From contig NKIB01015073.1 in the NCBI GenBank assembly GCA_002256025.1, forward strand, positions 1-38,427: a stretch of DNA of 38,427 nucleotides, written 5' to 3'. The position numbers and the translations under genes are program-made. The stretch comes from Asterionella formosa. Lineage: Eukaryota. The notes under the pieces are model-generated. The model did no database searches. It was not told the origin of the DNA and saw nothing but the letters and a program-made list of their open reading frames with translations. How positions within the stretch are numbered: position 1 is the first letter of the stretch; every line of letters starts with the position of its first letter. Of the stretch, positions 1,947 to 38,271 are shown in pieces.

Positions 1947-2574
1947 GGATGTACTTATTTTATTAAATAAAATGAAGACAGGTTACACAGGTTACTCAAG
2001 TCAGCAAACAGATAATACAGTACCCCGGTATAGCAAAGAATTGAGGGCGATGACGTTTCATGTGCTGGACACTGGTGGTGCAAATCATTGTTTCAGTGAT
2101 GACGTCTGGGTAGTAATTTATGGCGTAGGGGATATCAATGCTAATTTTTACTGTAAAAAGAAAACACATCATAATACCCGGATGCATATACAGCGCGAGA
2201 TTCAAGGGCAGGTGTGCAGTATGTTATAGCGGTACCTGGTACCTGGTAGTCAGTCTTGCATTTATTGAGGTATTCCAGTATCCACACATAATGAATAGAC
2301 TACCGGTAGACTTCATTACCTTCCATGTTTTATATGGTTCAAAGGCAATGTCTAGCATATCTTGCTCTGTCCCTTCCGGTTCACCCCCAAGCGCTTCAAA
2401 CGTCTTAACATCCAGGTAAACCGGTAAGGCTGGAATCACAGTACACATATTATACATCACCCTCACAAATCGCCCGAGCTGTTGTATTTATTTGTCGCAA
2501 CAATAAAAGGAATGAAACCAGAACCAATCCAAAGTTTGAGAAAGCGTCATGACATCCACGCACTTACAGATTGT

Positions 2575-5185
2575 TCAGGACAATACTTTGAATGATCCAT
2601 TTGATGACTTCATTAAGATTCCTTCGTTTCGTAGATTCTCGACCATGGTAGGAAACTCCTGGAGTCCACAACAGAGCTTATCAGCGATGCGTCGCAAGTC
2701 ATCCAATGTACATTCTGCACCAGAACCAACAATTCGGTATATCTCGTTAATAAAAGCCTTTTTCAACTTTTTGTTGCTTTTCCCGCCTGCTCCACCACGG
2801 GATCTATCTAAGGCACCAAATTCATCCTTATGAACTTCGTCAACCGATCGAGCCATTAATTCTACAACATCAAGCGCATCTTCCTCCAACACATATTCCC
2901 GAAGACAGGCCTTGGCACGTGCTTGGCAGAGACGAATTAAAGCTTCCAATTGTCGAGTGGTGATTGGAACTGTATCCCGTGGATTTCTACCGTCAGCAGG
3001 ATACCGAAGATTCATATAGTACTCCTTAAGAACTGAGGCAGCTCCTTGGGAAAGTCTGGGCTTGCAATACTCACGAGCATAGGAGATATAGTCCCGAACG
3101 AGATCAGCTGGAAGCGGCTCCTTTTGAAATTGAGAGACCCATTGAAGGCGCTCTTTTAGTGGCATTCGGTTCTCGGAGTCGTAGTTCTTTGAAGCCCCAA
3201 CGGTCGGAGCCTTTGACTCCATAGCTACAGTTTTCCCTCGATGATGATTCATAATGTTACTTGACACCAGACGATCTTGATCAATGTCTGCTCGGTCCCT
3301 CAATATGAAAACCAGATCAAACCGAGATAATATGGGAGTAGCCATGTTAAGGTTCTCTGCAACAGTCTTGTTCATGTTGTAGCTGCCGTGTTTCGGGTTT
3401 GCTGCGGCGATTATACTACACCTTGCTGGAAGCGAAGCGACAACTCCAGCTTTCGCGATCGATATCTGCTGCTGTTCCATTGCCTCTAGTAGCCCTTCCT
3501 GATGGCCCATCTTGTCCATCTCATCAATGCAGCAAATCCCTTGATCAGCGAGAACAAGAGCACCAGCTTCTATCCCCGTGTCACCGCCGGCCTCCTTCGT
3601 CATTGTCACAGTCAATCCAGTTGTCGAGCATGTATTCCCTCCTACATATACACTTCGAGCCGCAACTTGAGTTGCTGCCAATAACATCTGACTCTTTCCC
3701 ATTCCTTAATTTTTGGATGAAGGTGGATGAATGAATATGAGTAATATAATCGACGACTCGATTGGCACATGATGTGAACATACCGGGATCTCCTACTATA
3801 AGAATATGTGAATTGCAGCGAATAGAATTTCCTCGATCTGGTGATTGCGAAGATGGAGGAGTCCCACCAAGTAAGCAAAGCAATATTCCTGCTTTGACCA
3901 TATCGTGTCCAATTATTGCGGGACAAAGCGATCGAACTAGTAAATCAAAAGGAAAGGCCCTTCTTTCCATCATTCCAAAAAAACGATGATCTGCATGTGA
4001 CAACTGCGTGATACTATGAAATTGTTGTTGAGTATAAACGACATTTCCTCCACTTGTAGACGCCCCTTGCTGATTCTTTTCGCGTTGGTTGCTCTCTGAC
4101 ATGGTCGTTATCGAGTTTGCTTGTAGGTATAGCTTGTATGTGCTCGTTTCCATTGCCCGCTTTCCAACTTTTCCTTCTGCCACAGCGGAATTTACAGCTT
4201 GCACTATACTCGCCACCATAACAATATCACCAGGACGACACGAATCAACAAGGTCATTTTCAAGCTCTACTTCAATTTGTCGAGGTGTTCTGCCAGCTTG
4301 GGCCGTACTTTCTTCTTGTGCTTCTTGCAACCTGAGTTCTTGAACATTGATATATCGTGCAGTTGGTCGAATCATTGTAAAATTCTTGGCCCGACAATTC
4401 TTGGTAGCGCATCTTGTCGGAATAGAGTACCTCCCGTGATTGAAACTATGAATCGTGATGGCGCCACATTTGGAACATGAAAAATCAGCAGTGACGACTC
4501 TCAATCGCTTTGGTCTCGCTTTCACAACGTGACCTTTTATAGTCAGAAACTTATAAGCCATGCTCGTTCGTACATCCATCATTCGCACTTGAGGACGAAC
4601 ATGGTAGAATCTAATAACCAGTTTACATGCATCTAGAAAGCGGTCTAAACTTGGTCCTGAATTGGCGCGCCGCCAGAGTGTGGCCACTGCCAATGACATG
4701 GCGACTCCTACTGCAGCAAAGCCTTGTTCTGGCTTGTGATATAGAAAGGCCCCAAATGAATATCGACGAATAAAATCGTCCGTAACTGCTTGACCCTGAA
4801 GTTCATAGTGTTGCAGCTCATTCTGGAAATCTTCATGGTGCAGCGGAATGACAACTCTGCCTTCGAGCAGTTTGACACCAGCAGTGCTCAAAACCATTTT
4901 CGAATATGCTTCCAACGAGCTTTCTCGATTTACTTTAATGTGCTGGAACGCATTGTTTTCGTTGGGAGAGTCGAGTGGAAGTTGCTTTTTGAGAAAGAGA
5001 ACGAAGAATGCATGCATTCGCACAATAAAGCGGTAAGTCTGGACTTCAATGTTGATTTTGGTGGCCAACTCGGCTGTAGGACGAACATCGACAAGCTGGC
5101 GATTTTGGGTGCACCATAGGCGTTCAAGGTCGCTTTTTTGAACGCCTGTTAAGTCCGGAGGAAGGTGTGGAGCGAGGCCTGCCAT
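2575..5185 (-). CDS. MCM8: DNA helicase MCM8; exons 5185-3784 and 3704-2575, intron 3783-3705 (79 nt); about 843 aa
   Basis: Splicing GTATGT...AAG restores Walker A 'LIVGDPGMGKSQ'. Also Walker B 'CCIDEMDKM', arginine finger 'SRFD', Zn finger CSKC..C..C, and MCM8-type 'GRTPRQIEVELENDLVDSCRPGD' and 'KTVAENLNM'. Confidence 0.92.
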
Positions 5186-6358
5186 TTTGATGATGGAGGT
5201 CTTTGTAAGAAGGCGTGATCATGATTTTACCGGGGGCGGGATCGTAAAGTTTATCGGATTCTTTCCGGCTAATTCATAGGCTGAATTCAATCTAACAGAC
5301 TGGATTCAGTCTGGGTTTTCAATCCCTTGCCCCAACATAGTATTTTATGTCCCAGGTACCATACCCGGCAGCTCAATTCATTGGATTTTCCATTTCTTAA
5401 AAGTTAATCTATATATTATCTACAGAACTGTATGATAGGTTTCTGGAGTTATGCATGGCAATAAGTCTTTATGTTTAAATTTTTTCATCTACTTGAGACA
5501 TCGTTTGCCTGCCAAAAGCATAATCTGGAGCTGAATTGGTATCTTGCCTCCCAAACTTCAGTGACAAACATTTTACAGAAAGAAAATGATCACCTAGTCA
5601 GTGACTTGCATTTATAGTTAGAGGCAACCAACTATACTACCAAAATTGGTACTGAAATGATACCAATTTGATACCCACATTGAGTGAAATCTTGATAATA
5701 ATTTGGAACCAAATCAGTATAAAATAGGACAAGAAGCCATGTATACTCTGTTCTTCACCTTTGGCTTCATTGACTTCATGTCTGTTGTTGCCCTCATTGC
5801 CCTTGTTTTAGTCGAAGTCAGCTATGGCTTCATTGTTTTTGTGTTTGTCTTTTTACTTCACTGTTTCCATGTTTGTTGATGCCATTGTGTTTGTGTTTGT
5901 TTTTACCTGCATTGCCTGCATGATCATCTTCGCCTTCTTTGTTGTTGCCTTCATTTTTATCATCTTCATCATCACCTCATTGATATTGGACTTGTTGTCG
6001 TTTTCATGGGCATTGTTGCCTTTTCACTGCGAGAGGCAGCTTTGTTGGATCACAACTTTGCAGCTATGTAGCTACCGGTATACTGTATGTGATGCTTAGA
6101 AATGGAATCGACATGAGTAGGTACCAGGTACCGTACCTGGTATAAGCAATCGCACACTGTCGTTTAGCTATTTAACATCATTATATCGAGGTCGTGCTCG
6201 AGAAAAGTTTAAAAACTCCTTTGTTGTGTAAAGAATGTATGATAAATATATAGAAGACGAACGTAAAAGTGTTGCGTTTCATCATTATTCTTGTTGTCTG
6301 GTCAAAACTACCGGTATACCGGTATACTAATAATAATAATCAATTGTGAATATCAGCC

Positions 6359-8635
6359 ATGCCGGAGCATCCAATCGACAGTAACAACAAGGATAATCCA
6401 GTTCACGGCAACGCTAACCTAGATTTCACTTACTCAGATGACGCCTCTCCACAAAGTTCACCTCGCCTGCGCATGGAGATGTGTGACAGTCGGACGTACT
6501 TTGACGATGAAAGCATCGAAGAAGAGCAAATATTAGGTGATGAAGACGAAATTAAGCTGTCGTCGTCAACTTGCCCTTTGATATCTGTAGGGGCTAGCCC
6601 CTTCATGAACAGTGATGATTTCGCGGATAATTTGTTGGAAACAGATTTTTCTGAATCCGTATTACCGGTTGTTGCGTCTGTAAATATTACACCGCAAGCG
6701 ATCATGCCACAATCCCGCAAGCATGATCTGTTTGTACAGACAAACGAAGACATTTTGGAGAAAGTTTCATCGGATCGATCGCCAAAGCCCATTGGCGTAC
6801 CGCCTCCATTGCGACGAGTTTACTCCTCACCTGACTCCACACTCGCTTACAGTTTGTCGCCAACAATTATAGTAGCACCTAATCGATATGCCAGGATCCC
6901 AAGAGCTGAAATGAATAACATACCTAGAGCAGGAGTTAATGGAATATCGAGAAAAGTTGATCCTTTGGCGGCTACTTATTCCCTCAGTCGACAAATGTCG
7001 CTTCCGGTGACATCACAGGAACGCACACCCTCAATTACGCGAAAAATTCAAAAATTCACAGTAAATCCAGATTTCATCCTCGACAAAGAAAAGTTTCAGA
7101 AGAAAATGGCGCTCAGTGCCAACCACGGGTCGCCGTCAACTCGCAATAGCCCGCAAGGAAGCCATTTTCGAACTGTCGTCACACCTACACACAGACTTCG
7201 TAGAGGATCAAATAGCACCCTTCATGATCAATCTCCTCCAGAATCCCGAAGTGGTACCCCTCGATCACAAAGAGTTGATACTAAGGTGGGTGAATTGGAA
7301 TATAATCATGTAATGGACCAAACGGATAATGCTTATTCGCCGCCGCCCTTGAGTACGCGCCGATTATCGTTGGACGACTCATGGATTTCTCCTGACATAG
7401 CAGCATCGGCCAGGCGTCAACGAGGGCTACAATTTTGGCTCCGAAACGATTCACATTATATGGCGTATGTATCTGCCTTCGCCATATTTGGATCCACTTT
7501 TCGAGTATTTACAGGCAGGTTTTTTGGTTTGGACTGCGAAAATCTTAATGGGATTTCCGATTTTTGGATGTCACTGTCGAAAGGGATTTGCGTGACAACG
7601 TCGGGAGAAACAAGTCAAACAGGTGGGGCCCTGTTTACTGACTTACCAGCAAATATGATCGGGAGCTTTATTATGGGCGTTGTGTCGAATGTTAGACCCG
7701 ATTTATGGCCACCCCTTCCATGGTTTCACAAAGGTCATCCTCTCCAACAATATGAGCCACTACACGTTGGTATCAAAACGGGGTTTTGTGGGTCCCTTAC
7801 AACATTTTCTTCCTGGAATACGCAAATGGTGATCATGATGGATGGAACACATACAGAACTTGGCACTCAAGTTGTCGCTGCCATTGTTGGGTATATTCTC
7901 GGTCTAGTAGCATCCATTGGCTGCTACGTATTCGGAACTCAGGTCTCGATTTGGATAAATCGACATCGATATCCGAACATTGATCCTCGAATGGACAGTG
8001 CGAGCGACGACGATTCTGTTGGTTTGTTGGTGGAAGAAGGCGGCCTTTCGAGTCACGTAATTGAGAGAACATACGGTGACGGGGTTATCGTCTGTCCTGA
8101 CTGTCGCCTGTGTCGACCACTATGCCGCGTATTGACTTTTACGTTCTCGGCAAAATACATTGCTTTTACTTTTTTGGCTGGGATTTTCGTTGCGATGATC
8201 GTTGCAGATGCCATTCATAATATTCCATTCTATAGGACCATGTGGCTTTCTGTCTTGCTGACTCCTCCTGGGGCGATCTTGAGATGGCAGATTTCCAAAT
8301 GGAATGGCCGTTGGTCCCTCATGGGGAGATTCACTTGGCTTCCTTGGGGAACGTTTCTTTGCAATATCAGTGCTAGCATTGTTTCCGTTCTATGTGTCGC
8401 AATCCAATTTCGGTTTTATGGGGATGTCAATTCGTCGTGGCCTGTTGCTATTCTCGGTGCCATTAGGACTGGGTTTGCTGGTAGTTTATCAACGGTGTCC
8501 ACTTTTGTGAAGGAATTTATTGACCTCAACAACATTCATCAACATCACGGGAAAGCTTACAATTATGCATTGATTACAATTTTGACCTCGGCTTTATTAT
8601 GCTTGACCATCTACAGTTCTATTGTGCGATTCTAA
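6359..8635 (+). CDS. FEX: Fluoride exporter FEX (tandem CrcB/Fluc domains) with a long Ser/Pro-rich N-terminal extension
   Basis: Two CrcB signatures, 'GFCGSLTTFSSW' and 'GFAGSLSTVSTF', plus 'LPANMIGSFIMG' and 'PWGTFLCNI'. About 9 TM segments in the C-terminal ~400 aa. Confidence 0.9.
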   Translation: MPEHPIDSNNKDNPVHGNANLDFTYSDDASPQSSPRLRMEMCDSRTYFDDESIEEEQILGDEDEIKLSSSTCPLISVGASPFMNSDDFADNLLETDFSESVLPVVASVNITPQAIMPQSRKHDLFVQTNEDILEKVSSDRSPKPIGVPPPLRRVYSSPDSTLAYSLSPTIIVAPNRYARIPRAEMNNIPRAGVNGISRKVDPLAATYSLSRQMSLPVTSQERTPSITRKIQKFTVNPDFILDKEKFQKKMALSANHGSPSTRNSPQGSHFRTVVTPTHRLRRGSNSTLHDQSPPESRSGTPRSQRVDTKVGELEYNHVMDQTDNAYSPPPLSTRRLSLDDSWISPDIAASARRQRGLQFWLRNDSHYMAYVSAFAIFGSTFRVFTGRFFGLDCENLNGISDFWMSLSKGICVTTSGETSQTGGALFTDLPANMIGSFIMGVVSNVRPDLWPPLPWFHKGHPLQQYEPLHVGIKTGFCGSLTTFSSWNTQMVIMMDGTHTELGTQVVAAIVGYILGLVASIGCYVFGTQVSIWINRHRYPNIDPRMDSASDDDSVGLLVEEGGLSSHVIERTYGDGVIVCPDCRLCRPLCRVLTFTFSAKYIAFTFLAGIFVAMIVADAIHNIPFYRTMWLSVLLTPPGAILRWQISKWNGRWSLMGRFTWLPWGTFLCNISASIVSVLCVAIQFRFYGDVNSSWPVAILGAIRTGFAGSLSTVSTFVKEFIDLNNIHQHHGKAYNYALITILTSALLCLTIYSSIVRF

Positions 8636-8763
8636 GTTAATATAGACTGATGTTTCGGTCTAGTCTAGACCTGTGATAAGGCGTAATTAACCTGGATAAA
8701 AATCTGCTGGGTTACCTTCAGTGAATACGTGTCAAACGATTTCAATCTTGGGTAGAACTTTAT

Positions 8764-10861: not shown

Positions 10862-11382
10862 GTGATCTGCAAGTTGTTTCCACGCGTCGTCGGATCGTTT
10901 ACCGGTAGACGATATCAATCAATCAAATATCAAGCAGAGGTTATCCAAGGAAAAGGACCACTATGAAATGATCAACCGGTAATTTATGAAAATGAATAAA
11001 GGAGGATTTGAAGTTGGTCGGGGTACCAATGAAAACGTCGAGCTGGCTCGTTCATCAAAATCAAACCCATCAGATTGAGATTGCCATCCTCACATCATAA
11101 ATACCCGGCGGTACTTGTTCATCATAAATTTTATTACCGGTAGACTACCGGTAGGTAGTCTACCGTATGTTGGAAAAAAAATAAAACTTTAAAAAAAAAT
11201 AATAAATAAATAGATATTATATAGTTATAATAATTAATGAGGAATAGCGCAGCCATTACAGGGCGGTAGGGAGGCACTTCATTTCGTGATGGAACATGCA
11301 AAGCCTTGTTAAGACAAGGACCCTAACAGATTGTAAACAATAACTTTAGTAGTAGATATTATGGAAATACGCTAGAATTGCT

Positions 11383-13569
11383 TCAGTTACCTCTGGTAAT
11401 CACGCTGTTGAAGGCTGCTTGGCTGAGAGTTACCCTTCCTGTACTCTGCTGTCGTTTCTTGCCTTTCTTCTGCTTTTCCAATAGCTTCATTTTTCTCGTA
11501 ACATCGCCGCCACCAACAGACTTGCTTCCTCCAGTGGTAAGGACGTCCTTTCTATAGGGGTTGATTCGCTCACTAGCAATAATTTTGCCACCCGCCTTGG
11601 CTTGAATGACAGTCACAAACTGTTGTCGAGGTAAGACGTCTTGGAGCTTCTTGCAAACCAGACGAGATTGGGCCTGAGCCACGTCTACGTGGCAAACAAA
11701 GGACAGGGGTTCTACGATCTCTTGATTCAGCATTATGTCAACTTTGCTCAGCTTGGCTTCTTGAAATGGTGGATCTGCTTCCGTCGTGTCCAGACTTCCA
11801 TAGCCTGCCGTAATATTCTTCAATTCGTCGTGAAAGTCCGTCACTAACTCACCCCATGGCATCCGTCCTGTAAAAAGCCAATTCTCTTCATCTATGGGTC
11901 TAGATTCCAAACCCACACATCGCTTCCGTGTCATCAAGTCCATAATGCCTCCTGTGTAATCCGTTGGGGCCATGATAGATGCGTTTACCATGGGCTCTTG
12001 TATAGACACTTTCGCGGCACCTGGATCAGGCCATTTGGCCAAGTCCTCAATGATTTCGGTATATGGTTCAGTAAGTTTATTTGTAATGTGTGGGTGGTAT
12101 GTAATGTGATATGGAACTTTTGGAGGTGTCACTATAGCCTCCAATTCATGTTCGTCTTCCAATCGTTGTCTAAAAATCTCCACGTGCAACATGCCTTGGA
12201 AGCCGATACGAAGACCAGGACCTAAGAAAGGACCACCGTCTTCACCAGCTGAAGATCCTGCTGTTTTTGAAACCTCCAAGCCAGGATCATTCAGGGCCAT
12301 TTTTTCTACAGCAACACACAACTCTTCAAAGCCATCTGCTTCTAAAGGATGCACCGATGCATACAGAACCGACTTGGTTTCACCACAAGTGGGAAGTGAA
12401 GGCATGATCATTTTTTTGCCAACGTCTTTATTCATGATGAGTACTGTTCCTGTCCTGGCTTGTCTTGGATCCTTCAGTCCAAATCTAACATAGCCCATCT
12501 GCCCCCGTTTTAGGTGATTCATTCGCAAGGGGGTCGGTACTACAATCCCGATTTCTTGTACAGAATAAGACGAGGAGTCGCTACCAACAATGGAAATCCG
12601 ATCCGTTTCCTTCAGTTCGCCCGACACAATTTGCACAAGGCAGTTCACGCCTCGATTATCGTACCATGAGTCTACCACTTGAGCCCTCATTGTACTTCCA
12701 TCGTCATCTTCCAATATCTTAGGTGGAGGGACTTGTTCACAAACTGCGTCCAAAACGCCCTGAATTCCTAGCCTGTTTCTAGCTGAGGTATGTAGAATAG
12801 TGTCTGGATCATCCCAATTGAGCCATTCGGAGACAGTCAATGCTACATGGATGGGTCGGGCTTCCGCCAAGTCCACTTTAGTGAGTCCGATGAGAAGCTG
12901 TGGTGGATTAGGTAGCGACTTGGCTTTGTGATAAACAGAAAATGTTTGCGCTTGAATGCCTTGTGTCGCATCCAACAGCAATACAGCGCCTTGAATAAAG
13001 GAGAGTGATCTCGAAACCTCCAAACCAAAATCAACATGACCTGGAGTATCTACCATATTTAGCAGAATCAACCCCTCTGGTCCAACTGCCGATGGGTGAG
13101 GATACAGCATCGTCGCTGCTGAAGCTTTGACAGTGATCCCTCTTTCCTGCTCCACTGCCAGCGTATCGAGTGCCTCAATCTTTTCCTTGTTCTTGGCGTC
13201 AACGTGCAACGGGAGATCGAGGGTGCCAGCCGCGGCCTGCCGCGCTAATAGCTGTGCTTCTTTGCCTAGATTTCCAGTCAGCTCCAACACACGAGAGGCA
13301 AGACTTGATTTCCCGTGATCTACGTGTGCAATGAAGCAAAAATTTCGAACGTCTTCTAATGGGATTTTGTCCATGAGGTCCTTGTCCTCGAGAATTGAGA
13401 CCAGACGAGTTTCATGAATTCGAGTTGACAGGAACCGATGATTGCAAAAACTTCGTAGAGGTCGCTTACGGATTAGAGTAATACCGGTAGGCGATTGATG
13501 ACACACATCGTTGCACCGTTTAAGCAGAGCTGAGGGATACTGACGGAGGAAAGAGGAAGTTGCCGTCAT
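11383..13569 (-). CDS. GUF1: Translation factor GUF1/LepA (EF4), probably mitochondrial, divergent
   Basis: 'RNFCFIAHVDHGKSSL', 'EQERGITVKA', 'LNMVDTPGHVDF', 'GFQGMLHVEI', 'LPRQQFVTVIQA' and 'GGDVTRKMKLLEKQKKGK'. The Arg/Ser-rich N-terminus resembles a mitochondrial presequence. Confidence 0.93.
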   Translation of the reverse strand: MTATSSFLRQYPSALLKRCNDVCHQSPTGITLIRKRPLRSFCNHRFLSTRIHETRLVSILEDKDLMDKIPLEDVRNFCFIAHVDHGKSSLASRVLELTGNLGKEAQLLARQAAAGTLDLPLHVDAKNKEKIEALDTLAVEQERGITVKASAATMLYPHPSAVGPEGLILLNMVDTPGHVDFGLEVSRSLSFIQGAVLLLDATQGIQAQTFSVYHKAKSLPNPPQLLIGLTKVDLAEARPIHVALTVSEWLNWDDPDTILHTSARNRLGIQGVLDAVCEQVPPPKILEDDDGSTMRAQVVDSWYDNRGVNCLVQIVSGELKETDRISIVGSDSSSYSVQEIGIVVPTPLRMNHLKRGQMGYVRFGLKDPRQARTGTVLIMNKDVGKKMIMPSLPTCGETKSVLYASVHPLEADGFEELCVAVEKMALNDPGLEVSKTAGSSAGEDGGPFLGPGLRIGFQGMLHVEIFRQRLEDEHELEAIVTPPKVPYHITYHPHITNKLTEPYTEIIEDLAKWPDPGAAKVSIQEPMVNASIMAPTDYTGGIMDLMTRKRCVGLESRPIDEENWLFTGRMPWGELVTDFHDELKNITAGYGSLDTTEADPPFQEAKLSKVDIMLNQEIVEPLSFVCHVDVAQAQSRLVCKKLQDVLPRQQFVTVIQAKAGGKIIASERINPYRKDVLTTGGSKSVGGGDVTRKMKLLEKQKKGKKRQQSTGRVTLSQAAFNSVITRGN

Positions 13570-13744: not shown

Positions 13745-14017
13745 GTACCTGGGACGAGACCTCAACCTTGTACCTGGCACCAGGTATTATTACCAGGTAC
13801 CTGCAAGTTGCGGTCATTTTGCTTAAACTATCATTTTAATCTCGAATAAAAATAGCTAAATATTTAGTCTCAACAAAATCACCGCAACTTGCTGGTATGC
13901 ATACACCCGCACCAGGTAATATCTGATACTCCCTACCGGTACCTGGTACAAAAGTCCTGCATGCTGCTAATAATGACATCTAGTACGGGGTGAGTACCTG
14001 GTACCTGGTACCTGGTA
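13745..14017. promoter_or_regulatory. Cluster of TACCTGG/CCAGGTA/TACCGGTA motifs in the divergent GUF1 / DUF3598-like intergenic region
   Basis: Multiple copies, including a tandem GTACCTG array at 13994-14017 and inverted pairs at 13771-13786. A regulatory role is inferred from position only. Confidence 0.5.
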
Positions 14018-17814: not shown

Positions 17815-18203
17815 TGTCTTTATGATTGTTTAGGCTCTCGTAACTTATTGTGGTTGTGATGTCACAACTGATCGTCTAGGCAATTTATTACATCGACTAA
17901 CAACATCGAGGAAAATACGCTTGAAGGAGGTTATTTTGTGACTTCCGGGAAGCTCTGGGGAAATTTGGAGGCACAGTACCTGGTACCAGGTACCGGTATT
18001 AGACATAATAGATCGATCATACATACATCACGTACGTCATAGAGTACTATTGTCACAATGGCGACAGATGTTCGAAGGCTATCACAGGTGTTGAAGTCTG
18101 AGGAGAGGCTGAATGGATATCAGTATTTATGCATGGGCTGATTAAGGATTGCTTGATGTCTGGTCCTGTCCTGGTTGCACTTAAAGGACAGCACTTACAG
18201 GCT

Positions 18204-23511: not shown

Positions 23512-24194
23512 GGTCAATCAAACTCCCTATCCACTCGTCCTCGTGTGCTACAACCCTTGCTGCAAAATTGTGATCAGCATTTTGCATCAATTCGAATGCA
23601 AGTCAAGATGATATGTGGGATATACTGGCAATCCCCACCCTAGCTATCGTCTTGCTTTTCGATGAGAACTGTGGGTGTCTAAGTAATTATTGGTTTCTTT
23701 AAGTAATTTTTTTATTTAGGGGCAATATGGGGCACATTGGATTTTTCGGCAGTCAATTTTAGGTTTGAGCAGCAGGGACCATCGAGCAACGTCAGGAGTA
23801 GAATTTTCATCGGAAAAGGTTTACCGTAGACACATCAAAAATGCATGGACCACCGAATATACCGGTACCGGTATATGCATGAAAAATAGTTACACAAGAA
23901 TGATTGTAACAATCATCGAAAATTCGACACGATGTTGTTAAGCAACCAAAGTATGAAACGGAAATCGAAAGGTAAGACGTGAAAATGACAAGCAGGGAGT
24001 AGAGTAAAAAGTGGAAAAGAAAATGGGTCAGCGGAAAAATCGTGTGAAATTTTGTCAACGCATATTTATTAACAATTGTCAACTCACACTTTTTTGTCGT
24101 TGCAACGAAATTTCAAAATTTTTCAGATCGGGCCTGGCGGAGCAGAAACCGATGCCTGAATGTATTAAGAGGCAATGCTGGTTTATGAATTGAC

Positions 24195-24868: not shown

Positions 24869-26073
24869 TGTAGAAGATTGTGCAGAAGTAACAAAAGTAA
24901 TATTGTGATTAGAAAGCAATGAAACAATATTATTGTAGGGCAGCGGAAACAAGCCAAAACATGAGCGCTAAAACTTGCTGCCGAGATCTGATTTGAGATA
25001 GTGTAGGACACGTAGAAAACATACTACAAAAATATAGTTAAAATTTAACGGCGTATCATATCTGACGAAAATACCGGTTCAATGACGAGATGGAAGCCTA
25101 ACTTTGACCTACCATAACGTTTCGAGTTTTGATACTCAACGACTGATTTATGTCGCTTTTGAACAATCATTGATTTATTTATCACTACATATCAAATCTA
25201 GAGAAGTATTTGGCCGGAAAGGCTATCGGAAATCAACAGAAAGGGGAACCGAAATTTTGGCGCCACTGTGATGAAGCAAGCATGATGCAACAATATGAAT
25301 CCCATAAGAAGTCGAATTTTATCCAACAATCAGCCAGATCCATTTGATGAAGAGTCAGTACTTGGGACATCAATGACCAGATTTTGTATACATCAGAGCA
25401 TGTTGGAAGATAGCAGGGATGTAAATAGTGGAATTGCTGTTGACACTTTCAAGAAAACCATCATTTCTTGCCTTCACGTAGCTCATCCTACTCCCTTTCA
25501 ATTTTTGCAGTCGATTTTCCTTAATTAAACGGCAGTCAATTGAGGGGCTATAGATATCAGAAATCGAATTCGCTTACCGGTAAATAAACGGCCATCGATT
25601 TTGGCAATAAAATCTAGGGGCTATTGAAAATATTGAAGGTAGTTTGGCAGTCGAAAAACGGAGCATATGAAATATACAAAATATGTTTTATATGATGGGC
25701 AATTGCAGGAGTGAGTAATCCAAAAACTGTACATATGAAATATCCAGCACATGTTTTATTTGAAGGGCAATTGGCTAGTTCGCATCCAACATACAAACTA
25801 TGTAAAATAGGTTTTCAATGTCAAATGAAAGGGCAAGAAAGTGGCGAAAAGCGCGCCGATAGCTAGTTTGTGAATTGCCTAGGTAAGACCCGCCTACTCA
25901 GGAGGAGTCTGCCTACTTGTAATCTTGTGTACTTGGGGGGCGCCACTCGTTCCATTTAGGTCTCCACTTTGCGTGAAGACAACATTTCCCTACTAGCTAG
26001 TTGTTGTGTTTGATGGAACAACGCACAATTAAATACCAAGGTTTATAACCTTCAGACATTTGATAAAGAACAA

Positions 26074-26668: not shown

Positions 26669-27217
26669 ACACTTCTTTGCTACTCAGGCACAAAGCAAAC
26701 CCCGCAAGTACAACAACCTACGCTGTGGTGGTACTGTGCCCGAAGCGACGACACCTACAGCTTGGACAAGACGCAAGTCACAACTACATCGACGAAATCA
26801 TCTACCAAGCACGTTCGCACCTACCATACTAATCTACACTTCTTTGCTATTCAGGTACAAAGCGAACCCCGCAAGTACAACAGCTTATACTACGGCAGTA
26901 CCAAGTACCTGGTAATGTACAAAGCGAACCCCGCAAGTACAACAGCTTAACAGTATGGTGGTACCAAGTACCTGTTACTGTGCGTCACGCGAAGACAGCT
27001 GCCGGCACAGCCTGCATACCTGTTCAAGACTTCAACTGTACAACCGTACCAAGCGAACCCCGCCGGTACAAGAACCAGACACTAGTTCGATATCGTGTCC
27101 AACGCACGTGGTCTTCCTATTTTTGTTTTGTTCTTTTCTTTTTTTGGTGCGTGTGTACAGAGCTTCAGTACAGTCTGGTGTTAAGGTCGCCCTTTAAGTA
27201 CAAACCTCGCAAGTACA
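26669..27217 (+). repeat. Dispersed or tandem repeats in the retrotransposon 5' leader
   Basis: The core 'acaaagc(g/a)aaccccgcaagtacaaca' occurs near 26689, 26857 and 26919, with degenerate copies near 27046 and 27199. Confidence 0.85.
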
Positions 27218-27357
27218 CCGGGGTACCTGGTACCTACACATACCATCGGCAAGGTACCTGGTAAAACATCATGTTGCAGGCAACTAAATTTGGACACATC
27301 ACCCCAGAAGGACTTCGCTATTCTGGGGGCAGTTTGGATCGTCATTTTATTACTGAA

Positions 27358-28700: not shown

Positions 28701-29217
28701 CGTGGATGATGCACCAGAGGAGGACGCCACACTTGTTTTTACCCCTTTTGGATATGTTGCTGCCAGTAGTGAAGAGAATGTAGAATGGTTAAATGTTGTC
28801 CGTGATTTGTTGCATGCTCAACAAGTCGACGCCAGTCTGAAATCCCCATGCGTGACTCCGCCACCATTGGGCCCAAATAGGACTACTATCCTCCCCACAG
28901 GCTACCTCTCTATTACAGACGAAGACTGTGACATGTTCTTTGATTGTGAATCAGATGTGCATGATGATGAATCCACAGAAATGATGGAAGTGGAACAGAT
29001 TAGCTTAGTCCGTGCAGTCTTGTCTGGTCGCATTTACTACTCTACTAGTGAGGCAAGTGACTCTGATGATGAATCGGGTAATGAGGACCACCATGATCAC
29101 ACGTGGTTCACTAGTACCTTCTGAGTTGCCTGCCAGCAGCGATGCGTCACTGTTGGCCCTACACATTTACATGAAACCGACAGTAAACTACATGAAATAT
29201 ATACACCAGAAATAAAT

Positions 29218-29345
29218 ATATTAAGTTCTAATGAACAAATAAAACCATATGAAATGGATTCAAACACCATGTTCAACAACAATATTAAGTTCTAATGAAC
29301 AAATAAAACCATATGAAATGGATTCAAACACCATGTTCAACAACA
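29218..29345. repeat. Perfect tandem duplication, 2 x 64 bp
   Basis: 29218-29281 is identical to 29282-29345. Confidence 0.95.
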
Positions 29346-29356
29346 AAGATGAACAT

Positions 29357-32047
29357 TTCTCCGTTATTTGGGATACTGGGGCAACACCCCATAAGCGCAT
29401 ATAAGGGAGATTTTGTTGGAGAGTTATCAATTCCCAAGGCACCATTACACCTGGGAGGGATTGCTTCAGGCCTTGCTGTAATAGAAGGCATAGGCACTGT
29501 CCACTGGACTTTTCTACCTGACGATGGACGTTTGTTGCACCTGCATCTGAATGCATACTATGTTCCTCAGTGTACACAGCGTCTTCTATCACCCCAACAA
29601 ATATTCTCTAAAGAACAAGGTTTTACCGGTCAGTTTTTCATACTGGATGACTATGCCCAGCTAATGATAGATGGTAAACCACCTATAACTATTTACTATG
29701 ACCCAGTCAATGACTTGCCAACAAGTCGAGCAATTCGTTCTGCTACTGCAGGCCAACGAGAGGAGTTCCTATATCTATGCATCACCGAAGACCGCAATCA
29801 AAATTGAACAGAGGCACAGAAGGAGTATCTGCGTTGGCACTACAAACTGGGACATTTGGGCTCTGCTACAATACAGTGGTTATTACGACAACCGTCATTT
29901 GGTAACAATCTCAAGAGTCGAGCAGCTGCCCGTTGCACTTCACCTAAGTGTGCAGCATGTGAGTACGGTAAGGCCCATAGAAAACCTTTAAAAGCCGCAA
30001 TCAGCATTCCTTCGCCTGAGAGGGAGGGAAATGTAAAGTCTGGTGATCTAAATCCAGGCTCAGGAGTGTCTGTGGACCATTTTGAATCCCATGTCCTCGG
30101 ACGACAATATTCTTCGCGAGGAAAATCACAAGATTCTTGCATGTATAAAGGGGGCTGTATTTTTGTGGATCACGCATCAGGCCTTCTTTATGTCCACCAT
30201 CAGGTGGGATTTTCGGCAACCGAAACACTCACTGGAAAGCAGCAATGATTCGAGAATTGGGCTTACAATCACGGTGTTCTTGTTGCATTCTATATGACTG
30301 ATAATGGAACATTCGGCGCTAAGGAGTTTGTTGAAGCAATTATTGCGCGAGGACAACAAGTTAAATACTGTGGAGTTGGTGCACACCACCAGAACGGTGT
30401 TGTTGAAAGAAGCATACGCACTGTATCCAATATGGCACGAGTCATGATGCTACATGCATCTATAAGATGGCCTGAAACTGCTGATGCGACCCTATGGCCT
30501 ATGGCAGTTGATTATGCTGCGCATGTCTATAACCATGTCCCAGGCATACACCAAACAGGTCAGTCACCAATGGATATATTTACTGGATCTCTAGTACCCA
30601 GGCATGGTCTTAAGGATTTACATGTGTGGGGCTGTCCATCCTATGTATTAGATCCAAAGATGCAAAATGGCATGAAATTGCCCAGATGGAAACCAAGATC
30701 TCGGCGTGCTCTGTTTGTGGGAATGTCCCCTAATCACAGTAGCAACGTGCCCCTGGTACTAAACTTGAAGACTGGAAGTATATCACCTCAATTTCATGTG
30801 GTGTTCGATGACTTCTTTTCTACAGTGATGTCCATTCCAGAGGGAGATGACCCCGCAGCACACTGGGAGAATATTTTCAACAAATCACGCTTTCAGGCGT
30901 ATTTTGATGAACATGATTTGCCTACCTTACAGGAGGAATGGACCGAAAACGATGATGCCTACCTAGACAAGAAACGTCATATGGAGGCTAAGGTGTTACC
31001 CACCATTGGTCTACACAGAGATGAGACGCCGTGCGTCTTATCTTCAGGGGGAGTCACCAATGCAGGTGACTATGACAGAAGAAAGAGGGACACCATTGTC
31101 TCCTGCTGGTGTTGCTGTACTTTCGCCCATTGAAATACAGAGTGTACCAGTACGGATTGATGCAGTGGATGCTAACAAGTGGCTGCATAGGCTACCACCC
31201 ACTAGATTGGTACAAGAATCGGTAGTGACCATTCCACCAGGAACAGTAGTGTCACGGGAACCACAAGAGAACATTCCGCAAGGAACAGTAGCGGAGCAAG
31301 AACACGTGGAGATGCTGTCCCAAATGTCTCCTCGCCCACCACAGAGGCGTAGCATCAGAACAAACAGAGTACCGCAACGCTTTACTCCTGGTCTACGTGG
31401 GCAAGACGGTTATCTTGCAGGGTCATTTCTATCTAGTCTAAGTGAGCAGTATCATAGCCTGAGCCAATCAGAATCAGTCCTCGCCTATTTGTCATCTTTA
31501 ATGACCGATCCAATGACTAGATATTTGGAATGTACTAACCCACTTGCTTTCGCTGCGATGACTAAACGATCCGACCCAGACTCGCCAAGATATCACGAAG
31601 CAATGGCAAGCATTGATTCTGAATCATTTAAGGAAGCGATGGTAGCAGAAATAAATGCTCTTACAGCAAAGAATACATGGACTGTAATACTACGGCATTC
31701 ATTTCTGGCAAAAATGTTCTACCAGGAACATGGGCATTTAAGAGGAAGAGATTTCCTGACGGTCGTCTTCGAAAGTGTAAAGCACAGTTTTGTGTCCGTG
31801 GTGATAAGCAAGTCAAAGGCGTTGACTACTTCGAAATGTATGCACCAGTGGTACAATGGTCTACAGTGAGATGCTTACTCATAATGTCGATTGTGTTGGA
31901 CCTAAAAAGAAGACACAACAAATCGACTATAGTAATGCATTCTGTCAAGCAGAAATTGAAGAAGAAGTCTACGTGGAGTTACCTAAAGACTTTGGTGACA
32001 AGCAAGGGCGCGATATGGTTCTTAAACTAAATAAGTCGCTCTATAGT
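29357..32047 (+). pseudogene. pol of the copia element (protease, integrase, partial RT), disrupted
   Basis: Protease 'VIWDTGAT' (GAT at 29372). Integrase HHCC 'WHYKLGH...CAACEYGK' and DDE core 'VSVDH / TDNG / NGVVERSIRT', then 'SPQFHVVFDD'. RT 'TWAFKRKRFPDG..KAQFCVRGDKQ..YAPVV..QIDYSNAF'. Confidence 0.92.
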
Positions 32048-33681
32048 GTGGAACGACAAGCGACGATGTAAGCAATCAAAACGGACCATGGAAGCAATCA
32101 AATCGGAACTTCGACAATTTTGTATCTACGATCACATTCAGTGTTTCACTGTTGTACTCACCGATCCGCTCTAACAAGCGTAACACACGTGATGCGGGAA
32201 CTTACCCTGGAGTCTTTTCGGACAGAATTATTCAGCAAAACATACCTACGCAAGACTCTAAGTCTACGACAACGTTTTTGCACGTACTAATTCCTATTCC
32301 AATATTTTGTCGACTGTTGAAAAAACCGATCGGGTCGACTTTTTGGAAGAGAATTGCTCTACATCTACGGGGTTTCATGACGATTAAAATAGATAGCCGT
32401 GTACCCTATAACGTCAGGAGTTAACTTCTGGAGAGAAGTGGCAGTTATGTATCGTAGATTTTTTGAAAAGCTTCGTAGCCCCTTTTTTGACTATTTTTGC
32501 GGTAGTTACAAATCTATGATACATAACTGCCACTTCTCTCCAGAAATGGGGTCCTTACCATATCTGTATATAGATCATACCCCTAAGTCGCAAAATGACA
32601 TTATCTAAGCTGCATATGCAAAGTGGTCGTATTGGTGAAAGCTAATTTAACCTTTAAGTATTATATTTGCTTGTACTTGATGTGTGGATTGAGGTACATC
32701 ATAAAAATCTTTTGGGAAAAATGGACCTCGCAATTTGTAACTGCAGGGCCGCAACCTTAAAAGCCAATATGCCAAGAGTGGTCCTGCTGATGAGGCAAAA
32801 CGATAACACAAGAATACCCTTGTACTCAACCTATCCAAGTTGCATGGGTGTGGTTCGAAATACTAGAAAAGGTGGGTATTACTGTATGGTATACCAGGAC
32901 ATATTGTAGCTACATACCGGTATGTAGACTACTGACTGAAACCAGTATCTTTTGTGTAGACCTACAGTGGTACAAAATTGAACGCAATTTCTGCACATTT
33001 CTGTGGTGAAAATCATCCACATTTTTCTGGACCGATGCATGGCAACAGCCAAAAAATTCAAATCACCGTAGAAACAAGCAAAAATGGCTCCTGACGGAAC
33101 CGGCCGTTCGGAAAAATGTGGACAAAATCCCTCATCATAGATTTACCTATCGGCACTGAAACTAAACAACGGTATGCTCCACATTTTTCTGTACCAGGTA
33201 CCAGCAGCAGATGCCTGCGTTGTTTAATATCCAACTTCGCACGAGGAAGCGTCAAACGCTAAAAAGTGCTTTATGTTGGGTTTTTTAAACGACTGCACTT
33301 GAAGCCAATACGTATGACTTAGTATGTAGCTAAATTACTATGACACTGCAGCAACTTAGACCAACGTCATCACGTCCCGCTTTGGAGAAGAAGGGATGAC
33401 CCGGACTTGAAGCTGGGCTGGCATCGATCTGATTGGCTGATTCCGGCAACAGTGTGACAAGTTCAAATTTTTGCTGAGCCTGCTCCAAACCAAAGACGAC
33501 ATTCCCTGTAAACTACCCGTGGTACTTTGTACTCTACCGGTACTCAGAACGGTAGACATCTGGTAGTCTTTGTACATGTACTCGGAGTACATGCATGATC
33601 AGCAAACATTTTTGCCTTCCGAATCAGCAGAAAAAAATTCTTTCATATGATGTATTATTATTACCCAAACGACTAGAAACC

Positions 33682-35164
33682 ATGGCCTTTGATATGCCCG
33701 TCGAGGCCGACCGAGTCGACGACCTCGGCCTCTTCACTTTCTTCATACGTGCTCCAATATTTGGAACGATAGCATGGATGCTAGGAGGTCAAGATGCTAA
33801 GAAGCAACAAGAAGAGCAAGAACAAAGGCCCCATAGTGATGCGCCTAAGGAGCATGCTCTCCCACCAGCACAGCTGCAAAAGATGATAGAAACAAACCAG
33901 CAAAGGAAGAAGGGAATAATAAAGAAATTTCCTAGGCTCGTCGGAAGTGATATATCAGATTTTGGAGATTGTGCAATTCAGTTGAATGCAGCGGAATTGG
34001 AACATCATTTTGCGAGCTCAACTATGGAAGACGAGTATGACCTGAAAAGGGCCAACAAGCGCATGAGCTGGTCAGATGAAAGCGGAAAAGACCTAGTGGA
34101 ATACATAGGCGATGAGGTAAGCCCCTCCCCTGTTCGTCTCAGCTTTGACGTTGACAATTTATTCGAAACCTGTGGCTTGCGTGAGTGAATTTTCAATCAA
34201 TCAGCGTCTAGGTTGTTTTCACCTTGGCCCAAGGTTCAAGTTTTCATCGATTCATGCTCAGGCAAATACACTTTCTATTGATATTCCATTGAATATCACT
34301 TAGTTGCCTTCATTGGAACTAAATTGGGTCAGTTCATTGCGTCATTTTTTGCTGAAATGGAATGCTGTACACATAGTCAAGGAATGAGGACGTGAGATTG
34401 CAAAACAGAGTCTGCGATTTTTTTGTGTTGTACGAGCTCGTTTTGTGAGGTTTTTCAACACATATACTTATCACTGTACCGGAGATGTCCGTCCACAACG
34501 AATCGACGCATCACTATTCTGGTTCCTATAGTACCTGGTACCTGTCAGCAGGAAGTGAGACTTGACACCCTTGAGTACCGTGAAATATCTCTCATTTTTT
34601 GTCTGTGATGTTTGCTTATTTCTGGGCGATGGTGTATAACGTCGCAATTCGCCAAGGGGTCACGTTGTCATTGGGTCATTAACATTCTTACTAACATTCT
34701 TGTGTGATTGTCTTGGTATATCAATGGGAAATCAGACATCAACGATGTATGAACCTCAGCGCTCAGCAGAACCAAGATCCTCAGCCATCACCAACGCGAG
34801 GCAGCAAATGCAGGCGAAGCCCCTTATCAAGATAACTCGATCGATTCGCAGTAAAGATGCAACAAAGATTGCGGACACTGCTCGATTCCTTCCCAAAGGA
34901 TTACAGGGAGGTCACGGTGGTTTACTCATGCCTACGAAACCATTTGGTGATGGTCATGTCAGCCCTGACTGGGGGTGGTACATTAACACAACGCCCCCCA
35001 CCCCTGAAATGTATCATGCTTCAAGCAAAGTATGTATCAAGAACCCGTCAAACAACCCTGCACCGCAAACAATCACAAGGCGTGGTCCATCAACCTTGGA
35101 CAGTCCGGCCTTTTCGAAAGGACGCAAGGGCGGAGCGGCACATTGGCCAAGCGTTCCCATTTAG
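33682..35164 (+). CDS. Uncharacterised 287-aa protein with an RVxF-like motif; exons 33682-34116 and 34736-35164, intron 34117-34735 (619 nt)
   Basis: Phase-0 GTAAGC donor, TACTAAC at 34689-34695, and the first downstream AG (CAG, 34733-34735) gives an in-frame join. Motifs 'KRMSWSDESGKDLVEY' and 'SPDWGWYINTTPP'. Confidence 0.7.
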
Positions 35165-37820: not shown

Positions 37821-37881
37821 CGCGAGAAATGGTATTCCGTAGGCAAAGGGAATAACAAACGAGAGCAAGATACCGAACTAT

Positions 37882-38271
37882 GTACCTGGTACCTGGTACC
37901 ACCGATAATGATTTCCGCTAACATTGAAGGACAGACTACTGGTATGTACTGGTACAAACTAGTACATACCAGATACCGTTAAATATCTTAGGAGTCCCTA
38001 AGTACATGGTACAGTACCTGGTTGGTGGTACCAATACCTGAAACAATACGTGGACGTATTTTACGTACCGGTCCTGGTACGTATGTTCCTAATCCAACAC
38101 TTTTTTTACCGTTACTTTCTTCACGAGAAATGTGTATCCAATGTATAACTCTAAACGGAGCGATCACCATTTGAGTCTGTCCCTTTCCATATATGATACC
38201 AGGTACAGTATAGGCACAGGCACAGGTAGTATAGTACCTGGTAACCAAGTACAAGGTACCTGGTACCTGGT
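37882..38271. promoter_or_regulatory. Dense cluster of TACCTGG/GGTACC motifs upstream of the Hsp70-like gene
   Basis: Arrays at 37882-37900, 38034-38060, 38196-38205 and 38234-38271. A regulatory role is inferred from position only. Confidence 0.5.

Follow-up and report, generated by a model that had tools for sequence, protein, structure and literature searches.

In a 38,427-nt stretch of DNA from the freshwater diatom Asterionella formosa (NKIB01015073.1; hereafter the window, from which all motif counts derive), one family of palindromic words, TA-CCGG-TA and TA-CCWGG-TA, is concentrated at gene starts. We consider it somewhat probable, at about 0.55, that these words are excision scars of the Tc1/mariner type, left by a Stowaway-like MITE family and its putative autonomous partner and accumulating at promoters. 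The grammar of the motif matches the scar of a self-excising element, so the words may be a record of transposon traffic through promoters and not a purpose-built switch.

The words are strongly over-represented, and what the first-pass annotation observed holds. TACCTGG occurs 32 times (2.98 expected), TACCGGTA 15 times (0.11 expected) and GGTACC 29 times (4.09 expected), and no shuffle of the window reached any of these counts; ranked by frequency, the top six 7-mers are all motif words. Every cluster listed by that annotation is present, and we found further copies at 10900, 13482 (in the GUF1 ORF), 25575, 26906, 27224, 27255, 32915 and 34532. Its description of the family as GGTACC-centred was imprecise because GGTACC is simply the junction where two units overlap in a TA. 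The motif proper is a palindromic word, either TACCGGTA (n = 15) or TACCWGGTA (n = 21). When all 256 8-bp palindromes were compared, the runner-up to TACCGGTA had 4 copies, and the runner-up to TACCWGGTA among 9-bp palindromes had 3. The central base of the 9-bp form was A or T in all 21 cases, TACCSGGTA did not occur in the window, and TACCNNGGTA occurred once. Each of the 36 perfect copies, where ~0.4 would be expected by chance, has the form TA-x-TA: CCGG leads the TA-N4-TA words of the window (15, runner-up 4), and CCTGG (16) and CCAGG (5) lead the TA-N5-TA words (runner-up 3). One-mismatch copies number 31 against ~11 expected, a surplus that the perfect copies exceed; this relation fits young neutral scars and purifying selection equally well. 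The copies and their settings are collected in Table 1.

Table 1. Motif copies and the associated inverted-repeat element in the window.
Feature	Position	Strand	Setting
TA-CCTGG-TA-CCTGG-TA chain	2233..2248	.	~160 bp upstream of Gemin2 transcript end (2077)
Lone TA-CCGG-TA	2301..2308	.	
Degenerate copy, TCCCAGGTA (one mismatch) then TACCATA	5350..5365	.	by MCM8 start
Lone TA-CCGG-TA	6073..6080	.	upstream of FEX
Mixed chain TA-GG-TA-CCAGG-TA-CCG-TA-CCTGG-TA	6118..6142	.	
Two TA-CCGG-TA abutting	6309..6324	.	at FEX RNA contig 5' ends (6300/6328)
Lone TA-CCGG-TA	10900..10907	.	in 5' UTR of 8764-10861 gene
TA-CCGG-TA, 3 bases, TA-CCGG-TA-GG-TA	11135..11157	.	~100 bp upstream of transcript end 11038
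Lone TA-CCGG-TA	13482..13489	.	in GUF1 ORF, 225 nt from RNA 5' end
One-mismatch copies (13746, 13771, 13778) then perfect TACCAGGTA (13791-13799)	13746..13799	.	
Stowaway-like MITE including both flanking TA	13798..13897	.	33-nt inverted arms, tips CCTG/CCAG
Mixed chain TA-CCGG-TA-CCTGG-TA	13934..13948	.	
Three TA-CCTGG units chained	13995..14017	.	53-95 bp upstream of RNA contigs starting 14070-14090
Mixed chain TA-CCTGG-TA-CCAGG-TA-CCGG-TA	17977..17998	.	5' end of small spliced minus-strand gene (ATG 17814)
TA-CCGG-TA-CCGG-TA chain	23860..23873	.	~350 bp upstream of likely XDH ATG (23511)
Lone TA-CCGG-TA	25575..25582	.	unannotated DNA
Three TA-CCTGG-TA (26906, 27224, 27255)	26906..27263	.	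repeat-rich unannotated DNA, immediately upstream of Copia remnant
Three lone copies (32915, 33192, 33535)	32915..33542	.	upstream of gene starting 33595
Lone TA-CCTGG-TA	34532..34540	.	within 33595-35164 gene (exon or intron)
Five perfect (37883, 37890, 38197, 38235, 38257) and ten one-mismatch copies	37883..38271	.	upstream of 35451-37820 gene

On a map based on coding sequences, spacers bordering at least one gene start hold 30 of the 36 perfect copies in 5,779 bp (5.19/kb), and all eight such spacers carry at least two each; 13 of the 15 copies of TACCGGTA lie in 5' spacers. Coding sequence holds 2 copies in 22,315 bp (0.09/kb) and unannotated DNA 4 in 4,078 bp, with no perfect copy in the 4,900-bp Copia remnant or in the three convergent spacers (1,355 bp in total). 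The earlier observation that convergent spacers lack the motif therefore holds, at a strength that is only suggestive: given ~14 clusters across the 5' spacers, the convergent ones should hold ~3.3 (P(0) ~0.04). Perfect copies are likewise missing from most of 5400-6070, 15760-16700 and 18010-18660, three long stretches of non-coding DNA, and the middles of the first and third are empty. To say that the motif marks every host gene was slightly too strong. All eight gene-start spacers have it, and for 9 of the 10 genes that could be assessed a perfect copy lies no more than 500 bp from the ATG, but the copy near the MCM8 start is degenerate and the 5' flank of the first gene (79-1059) falls outside the window.

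RNA contigs from four runs supplied transcript 5' ends against which the copies could be placed. For bases 1-20000, which the RNA-supported map covers, all 21 copies lie between -228 and +225 of a transcript 5' end, 17 of them upstream. This zone, whose limits were picked after the data had been seen, makes up 16% of the 20 kb yet contains all 10 clusters there. By Pfam, the flanking genes (SIP1/Gemin2, MCM8, CrcB/FEX, LepA/GUF1 and XDH) have unrelated functions, in agreement with the first-pass annotation. A metagenome scan was swamped by bacterial-level LepA matches (79 of 80 loci, at 34-42% identity); its one 60% relative, with a GC content of 0.54, has no copies in 4,797 bp.

Such placement is also what a binding site predicts. 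A homodimeric factor whose site had an origin unrelated to any transposon could read GGTA half-sites through its two monomers, with no base or one A/T base between them, and multiple such sites, lying 50-230 bp ahead of the transcript start, would bring a general activating or nucleosome-excluding factor to most promoters. Yeast Reb1 and Abf1 sites and the Drosophila DRE, bound by DREF, are short, often palindromic words of this kind, found near the transcript starts of many unrelated promoters; for those words the proteins have been identified and effects on nucleosomes or transcription measured, whereas for the diatom motif both would be putative. The palindrome of the Grainyhead/CP2 family, which is not known outside animals, fungi and their relatives, shares the central ACCGGT and differs in its flanking bases, and we know of no 9-bp form of it. 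A dimeric site would account for a strictly palindromic word that is the unique outlier among all palindromes, for the position of all 21 RNA-mapped copies, for the presence of the word in every promoter spacer and its absence from all three convergent ones, and for the unrelated genes served. It would also suit the half-copy CCAGGTA, the only non-AT-rich word still strongly enriched once perfect copies are masked (8 vs 2, in promoter spacers). It leaves unexplained, however, the obligatory terminal TAs, the center that is CCGG or CCWGG and never CCSGG, and the mixed neighbors that share a TA, and we regard it as unlikely. The first-pass annotation had proposed that the motif serves as a general promoter element, excludes nucleosomes or is bound by a dimeric general factor; the promoter position it described is borne out, while the function is putative, and it had not considered that a TA-bounded MITE might be the source.

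Such an element lies in the window. The inverted repeat at 13798-13897, the second longest of the window, spans 100 bp, with two 33-nt arms that are 85% complementary and an AT-rich middle of 34 nt between them. It is flanked by a TA target-site duplication (13798-13799 and 13896-13897); from the TA inward the arms agree at 28 of 33 positions, and outside the TA at 0 of 7. As DNA it folds at -22.3 kcal/mol (z = -6.31), and none of 200 shuffles folded as well. The element has no coding capacity, and no transposase domains were found in the window. In its TA duplication, 33-nt terminal inverted repeats, non-coding length of ~100 bp and AT-rich middle it resembles Stowaway MITEs; it differs in its inverted-repeat sequence, which had no match among the families looked up. 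Its tips, CCTG/CCAG, coincide with the opening four bases of the motif core, and the TA on its left closes the perfect TACCAGGTA copy at 13791-13799.

The window contains a single copy of this MITE. RNA contigs were found that match the window solely across the inverted repeat and then diverge, at 13795/13796 before and at 13823-13827 behind, and in others the repeat is joined to the motif arrays of other loci (X11, 17996>13803; X8, 17994>13799). One X7 contig (14012>17976, depth 606), with ...GCAACTTGCCGGTA, represents a CCGG-tip variant. Judging by these contigs, the family may be multicopy, which would argue for scars. If the palindrome were a binding site, the MITE would have to prefer the motif as its target, or its tips would have to resemble it by chance. 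We estimate the coincidence of a TA-bounded MITE carrying CCWG tips at ~1 in 128, and the binding-site reading must accommodate the same inverted repeat adjoining arrays at other loci too.

An excision scar would arise in the following way. The element would insert at a TA and duplicate it; on departure, staggered cuts would leave its terminal bases on the flanks, and end-joining would seal these between the two TAs. Tips of the form CCWG...CWGG would give TA-CCWGG-TA if two 4-base overhangs annealed through 3 bases and the central one was resolved as A or T, and a CCGG tip would give TA-CCGG-TA through full 4-base annealing. Re-insertion at the TA of an old scar, followed by excision, would add one unit and produce both 6-/7-bp "arrays" and mixed chains. 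Scars would lie within ~230 bp of transcript starts because the element lands there and is tolerated there. The formula TA, tip bases, TA does reproduce TA-CCGG-TA, TA-CCWGG-TA and the mixed chains sharing a TA. Footprints of known Tc1/mariner elements are built alike, from the terminal bases of the element between TAs. Sleeping Beauty is described as being cut 3 nt in from its ends (PMC12255080), and terminal bases (CAG) stay behind between the TA duplications, with an A/T-ambiguous middle base as expected from overhangs annealing with a central mismatch. For Tc1 the footprint is taCATGta, as cited by Seidl et al. (PMC3520976). Known footprints are rare by-products that have been studied at single loci, whereas those of the diatom would be the top over-represented, promoter-concentrated word, with excision and its 4-base stagger deduced from the letters of the DNA.

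How the units are chained bears on a third reading, in which a neutral 7-bp microsatellite grew by replication slippage in unconstrained sequence. Tandem Repeats Finder reports period-7 arrays at 2231-2248, 13994-14017, 37882-37900 and 38234-38271 and a period-8 array at 6309-6327, and (TACCTGG)3 occurs in 95 bacterial genome stretches; there it resembles an ordinary heptamer microsatellite that includes variant units. The window has 27 chains, 7 of them with at least two full units, and adjacent units always share a TA. Three of those 7 (6118-6142, 13934-13948 and 17977-17998) mix unit types, which slippage of a single unit cannot do. The other 20 chains consist of one full unit (two with a short extra piece), so these perfect 8- and 9-mers stand alone and do not qualify as tandem repeats; the main form is not a head-to-tail array of one unit. 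The isolated copies largely refute a microsatellite, which the empty convergent spacers (1,355 bp) and long non-coding stretches also disfavor, and we consider it highly improbable. One X11 RNA contig (depth 2.5) lacks 6 letters at 6317, within the pair at 6309-6324. The missing piece has the size of CCGG plus TA and not of the 8-bp tandem unit; a deletion between two TAs would explain it equally well.

Several observations weigh against excision scars. A binding site would predict the confinement of copies to ~230 bp around transcript starts, so the scar model requires an extra assumption, a strong insertion bias. A precedent in favor of scars is that Stowaway MITEs and mPing show enrichment both upstream of TSSs and within 5' UTRs (PMC6881990). 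Just one element lies in the window; since cut-and-paste movement would leave one scar per hop while copy number stayed flat, a ratio of 36 scars to 1 element may not be absurd. To our knowledge, scars at ~one per kb and in all eight of eight promoter spacers have never been reported. The simple fill-in products TACCATGGTA and TACCTAGGTA were absent from the window, where the pattern TACC..GGTA gave a single match, TACCCCGGTA; TACCATA occurs 5 times, about the chance number.

The same 8-mer is established in another stramenopile lineage, and the statement of the first-pass annotation that no named element matched the motif is incorrect for the 8-mer. In oomycetes TACCGGTA is the promoter motif M94 of Roy et al. 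2013 (PMC3597505) and motif-9 of Seidl et al. 2012 (PMC3520976), and it forms the core of streme-5, ATACCGGTAT, in Plasmopara halstedii (PMC10031896). The oomycete papers locate it 5' of 1,284 genes in Phytophthora and 206 in Plasmopara and describe it as conserved across three Phytophthora species and correlated with expression, which would support a binding site and counts against scars; they draw no link to transposons. A factor for the palindrome is named nowhere in the passages of the literature examined, a gap for the binding-site reading. The ACCGGT string does not appear in the main text of a P. infestans protein-binding-array paper, and searches of the diatom literature returned no paper with the word. 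The oomycete and diatom motifs have in common an identical 8-bp core, the inverted-repeat form and abundance 5' of genes. In oomycetes, however, the motif is reported as one of many, linked with infection-stage expression and enriched at RXLR effector genes, whereas in the diatom it is the single dominant word, present in 8 of 8 housekeeping-type promoter spacers, with an equally common 9-bp form and with chains. For a sibling palindrome, TACATGTA, Seidl et al. (PMC3520976) remarked on its resemblance to a Tc1 footprint and rejected that origin because the motif is so abundant. TACATGTA and TACCGGTA are the two most abundant unexplained promoter palindromes of oomycetes.

Scars and binding may also be combined. 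Transposon scars or tips could later have come into use as the site of a host factor, active in promoters and possibly derived from a transposase that already recognized the element ends. This would unite the grammar and the MITE evidence with the promoter-proximal position, and it fits the conservation and expression correlation in the oomycete reports. Array-bearing X7 contigs reach depths of 646 and 4,474, compared with ~10-70 for the window's own genes, indicating that strongly expressed genes carry arrays; contig depth, however, reflects presence in transcripts and not causation. The relative numbers of perfect and one-mismatch copies are consistent with neutrality, and both binding and selection are putative here. 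We hold such co-option to be doubtful and prefer excision scars.

If the words are scars, they carry a warning for motif discovery, in that a palindromic, over-represented and promoter-tight word needs no selection for binding. They would also reopen the footprint question that the oomycete literature (Seidl et al., for TACATGTA) set aside, and would offer a countable record of transposon activity and of its reach, that is, a map of accessible promoter DNA in the genome. Should a factor prove to bind the word instead, a diatom would have a promoter element of near-universal occurrence with an exact oomycete counterpart, useful for promoter design in diatom biotechnology. A more speculative outcome, which we think improbable, is that the scars of one TA-inserting family became the genome's commonest word at nearly every gene start and were adopted as the site of a dimeric, possibly transposase-derived factor, with TACATGTA and TACCGGTA of oomycetes sharing that origin. 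Were this true, a class of stramenopile "general promoter motifs" would be fossil transposon traffic.

The window is compact, eukaryotic and has few introns, and the Pfam domains it encodes are SIP1/Gemin2, MCM8, CrcB (fluoride exporter), LepA/GUF1 and xanthine dehydrogenase. The closest named relatives of the GUF1 protein are from pennate diatoms (62-66% identity), with metagenome proteins reaching 85-87%, and the public runs that contain DNA of the window are lake, freshwater and algal samples; on these grounds we treat the window as DNA of a freshwater diatom. An Rfam scan of the window returned no family. Two gene pairs meet at their 3' ends with overlap: the stop codons of the 79-1059 gene and Gemin2 share 4 bases (1056-1059), and the 3' UTRs of FEX and the 8764 gene overlap, because single RNA contigs cross their junction (8259-8763). 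The strongest GC skew of the window (+0.23 over 1 kb) is found at 24001-25000, an unannotated region upstream of XDH that holds no ORF with a Pfam match. A well-expressed, spliced transcript has only short ORFs, and its 50-aa frame, which begins at the first ATG (17814), enters the intron; this transcript is a small protein gene or a non-coding RNA. We looked for long terminal repeats around the Copia-type element and found none. The inverted repeat directly beyond it may be a second MITE-like element, with ends unlike those of the candidate at 13798-13897.

Repeats, mobile-element remnants, mixed motif chains and the short-ORF transcript of the window
Feature	Positions	Strand	Details
Mixed chain	6118-6142		TA-GG-TA-CCAGG-TA-CCG-TA-CCTGG-TA
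Candidate Stowaway-like MITE	13798-13897		100 bp, TA-bounded, 33-nt arms
Mixed chain	13934-13948		TA-CCGG-TA-CCTGG-TA
Short-ORF transcript	16676-17960	-	intron 17635-17706 (GT..AG on minus)
Mixed chain	17977-17998		TA-CCTGG-TA-CCAGG-TA-CCGG-TA
84-bp unit, two copies	18204-18370		95% matches; between small 17814 gene and XDH 3' end
Degraded, frame-shifted Copia-type element	about 27500-32400	+	zinc knuckle, gag-pre-integrase, integrase SH3, start of RVT_2
64-bp tandem duplication	29211-29338		inside Copia-type element
Longest inverted repeat of the window	32408-32563		54-nt arms, 83% complementary, 48 nt between; directly beyond truncated Copia reverse-transcriptase fragment

The first-pass annotation had described a GGTACC-centred family of palindromic words. 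These words are strongly enriched: we counted 32 copies of TACCTGG (2.98 expected), 15 of TACCGGTA (0.11 expected) and 29 of GGTACC (4.09 expected), no shuffle was as high for any of the three, and the six commonest 7-mers of the window are all motif words. The proposed center has to be given up, as GGTACC is simply the seam that joins units sharing a TA. The real unit is palindromic, and its two forms are TACCGGTA (15 copies) and TACCWGGTA (21 copies); when all palindromes of each length were compared, the second-ranked had 4 copies at 8 bp and 3 at 9 bp. Neither C nor G stands at the center of the 9-bp form, and one copy has a two-base center. Judged by eye, the orientation of CCTGG versus CCAGG follows no pattern relative to gene direction. 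After masking of the motif, the enriched remainder consisted of half-copies and AT-rich words only, with no second co-occurring promoter word. An SBP-type or other GTAC-core reading was ruled out by several isolated copies without GTAC (e.g. 2301 and 10900).

Splitting the copies at TA gave 27 chains with a small vocabulary: CCTGG 16 times, CCGG 15, CCAGG 5, GG 2, and CCG and CC once each. Adjacent units share their TA in every case. Most chains (20 of 27) have a single full unit, and three of the seven multi-unit chains mix unit types. Slippage can account for neither isolated perfect copies nor mixed chains, which makes a plain microsatellite highly improbable. In RNA run X11, one contig (depth 2.5) is six letters short at 6317; six letters correspond to CCGG plus TA, not to an 8-bp tandem unit. 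A simple deletion between TAs would leave an identical trace.

Ranked by length, the inverted repeat in the bidirectional promoter of GUF1 and the 14156 gene is second in the window. Counted from the TA inward, its two ends agree at 28 of 33 positions, whereas outside the TA they agree at none of seven, and it folds as a hairpin with z = -6.3. From its sequence, this candidate has the anatomy of a Stowaway-like MITE, that is, of the Tc1/mariner superfamily. Its tips, CCTG and CCAG, match the motif core over the core's first four bases, and a perfect TACCAGGTA ends in the TA that bounds it on the left. The inverted repeat also occurs elsewhere: some RNA contigs match the window across it only and then diverge (at 13795/13796 and at 13823-13827), and in others the inverted repeat is joined to motif arrays. 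One such repeat-plus-array contig, at depth 606, carries a repeat ending in CCGG-TA, a third tip variant. Within the window this is the only such element and there is no transposase; in a search of 23900-27600, none of 26 ORFs had a Pfam match at E <= 0.1.

We favor the reading that the motif copies are excision scars of a Tc1/mariner-type element, at a probability of roughly 0.55. Such elements insert at TA, which they duplicate, and on excision they leave terminal bases in the donor DNA. In Sleeping Beauty the cut falls three bases in from the ends of the element, and the repaired site keeps a three-base scar between TAs (PMC12255080); the Tc1 scar is cited as taCATGta (PMC3520976). If the stagger were instead four bases, overhangs with CCWG tips would pair over three bases, the middle position matched or mismatched, and a one-base fill would give TA-CCWGG-TA. 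CCGG tips would pair fully and give TA-CCGG-TA. A single overhang rule would thus produce both motif forms, the A/T-only center and the TA at each end. Re-insertion at the TA of an old scar would build 6- and 7-bp periodic chains as well as mixed ones, and excision of the resident MITE would leave TACCAGGTA-CCWGG-TA, the type of chain present at 17977-17998. Conservative cut-and-paste would deposit one scar per hop with the number of elements flat, so many scars per element would be expected in principle. Against this reading, the window holds a single such element and no transposase, and simple fill-in products, with six bases between TAs, are absent from it.

The positions of the copies bear on this reading and on its competitors. 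On a CDS-based map of the window, 30 of the 36 perfect copies fall in the eight spacers flanking at least one gene start (5,779 bp in total, 5.19 copies per kb); coding sequence (22,315 bp) holds two, unannotated DNA (4,078 bp) four and the Copia remnant (4,900 bp) none. The proposal that the motif marks every host gene stands for the gene-start spacers, all eight of which hold at least two perfect copies, but for MCM8 the only copy near the start is degenerate. Convergent spacers had been described as lacking arrays, and indeed the three in the window (1,355 bp) have no perfect copy; given about 14 clusters in the 5' spacers, the probability of this is about 0.04, and for spacers this short the contrast taken alone is only suggestive. 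Stronger positional evidence comes from RNA contigs of four runs, which we aligned to bases 1-20000 for transcript limits and five introns, using stretches without RNA cover (e.g. 16009-16675 and 18010-18676) only for rough placing of transcript ends. All 21 perfect copies in these bases lie within -228 to +225 of a transcript 5' end, 17 of them upstream, in a zone that covers 16% of the sequence and whose limits were set after inspection of the data. In the long spacers 5239-6299 and 17931-18659, copies are confined to the 230 bp adjoining FEX and the 70 bp adjoining the small gene (ATG 17814), respectively. The contig ends are variable (e.g. 14070, 14080, 14083 and 14090) and stop short of the arrays, and therefore are not assembly breaks at repeats. 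Motif arrays also recruit RNA contigs of other loci in run X7, at depths of 646 and 4,474, far above those of the window's genes, which implies that some strongly expressed genes have transcribed arrays. In the contig at depth 4,474, 12 other letters separate two motif chains; a very highly expressed community transcript therefore bears several motif units.

Such sharp confinement to transcript starts is what one would naturally predict for a binding site, and the excision reading requires an added assumption, namely that the element would favor landing sites in promoters. We know of no precedent for scars that reach ~1 per kb and occupy all promoter spacers. In favor of the excision reading, Stowaway MITEs and mPing show enrichment upstream of transcript starts and within 5' UTRs (PMC6881990). 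Besides the 36 perfect copies there are 31 one-mismatch copies, of which promoter spacers hold 19, where about 11 in all would be expected, and these counts fit purifying selection and young, presumably neutral scars equally well. A binding site unrelated to the transposon seems to us unlikely, and scars later co-opted as binding sites equally so. The same three bases (TACCGGTAGAC) follow three of the fifteen 8-bp copies (2301, 10900 and 11135), and GAC precedes the copy at 11146; the extended word TACCGGTAGAC is explained by neither a scar nor a binding-site model.

Searches of other genomes were also carried out. Searching metagenome contigs with the GUF1 protein yielded 80 loci, 79 of them at 34-42% identity, the level of bacterial LepA matches. 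The sole eukaryotic-looking locus (L001; 60% identity, 4,797 bp, GC 0.54) has no motif copy, and one distant locus without the motif says little. In viral contigs, a 14-mer search found 106 stretches, no more than a rough chance estimate for a collection of that size; the only dense contig has a coding repeat of 147 bp, and no contig is diatom-like. Bacterial and archaeal genomes, two isolate genomes among them, contain 95 stretches (L187-L281) with the 21-mer (TACCTGG)3, against a chance estimate well under one. These stretches, from Gemmatimonadota, Acidimicrobiia, Acidobacteriota, Planctomycetota and others, frequently have variant heptamers next to them (TACCCGG, TGCCTGG, TACTTGG, TACCTAG), and in several MAGs 3-5 contigs bear arrays. 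With a GC of mostly 0.5-0.7 and variant units, they resemble a family of bacterial heptamer microsatellites, and diatom contamination was rejected as their source. Neither the viral nor the bacterial collections yielded anything that bears on the diatom motif.

Although the first-pass annotation knew of no named element matching the motif, TACCGGTA is already known as an oomycete promoter word. It is M94 in Phytophthora infestans (Roy et al. 2013, PMC3597505). It is also motif-9 of Seidl et al. 2012 (PMC3520976), an inverted repeat that precedes 1,284 Phytophthora genes, was retained by a filter for conservation in three species and shows a correlation with expression at infection stages. In Plasmopara halstedii, ATACCGGTAT lies upstream of 206 genes (PMC10031896), and the oomycete papers also report enrichment of TACCGGTA at RXLR effector genes. 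For a sibling palindrome, TACATGTA, likeness to a Tc1 footprint was noted and then rejected, as the word was too abundant and conserved (PMC3520976). Figures and supplements aside, the oomycete papers assign no binding factor to TACCGGTA and make no link to a transposon, and the main text of a P. infestans binding-array paper lacks the core string. We found no diatom paper that names the word.

The diatom motif thus shares its identical 8-bp word with oomycetes, its architecture with classical Tc1/mariner footprints, although the known ones are rare and studied at single loci, and the anatomy of its resident element with Stowaway MITEs. To the oomycete case, the window adds a resident element whose ends match the motif and which lies on one of its copies. 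The finding is either a well-known repair product, unusual in its scale and location, or the diatom counterpart of the oomycete word together with a 9-bp form.
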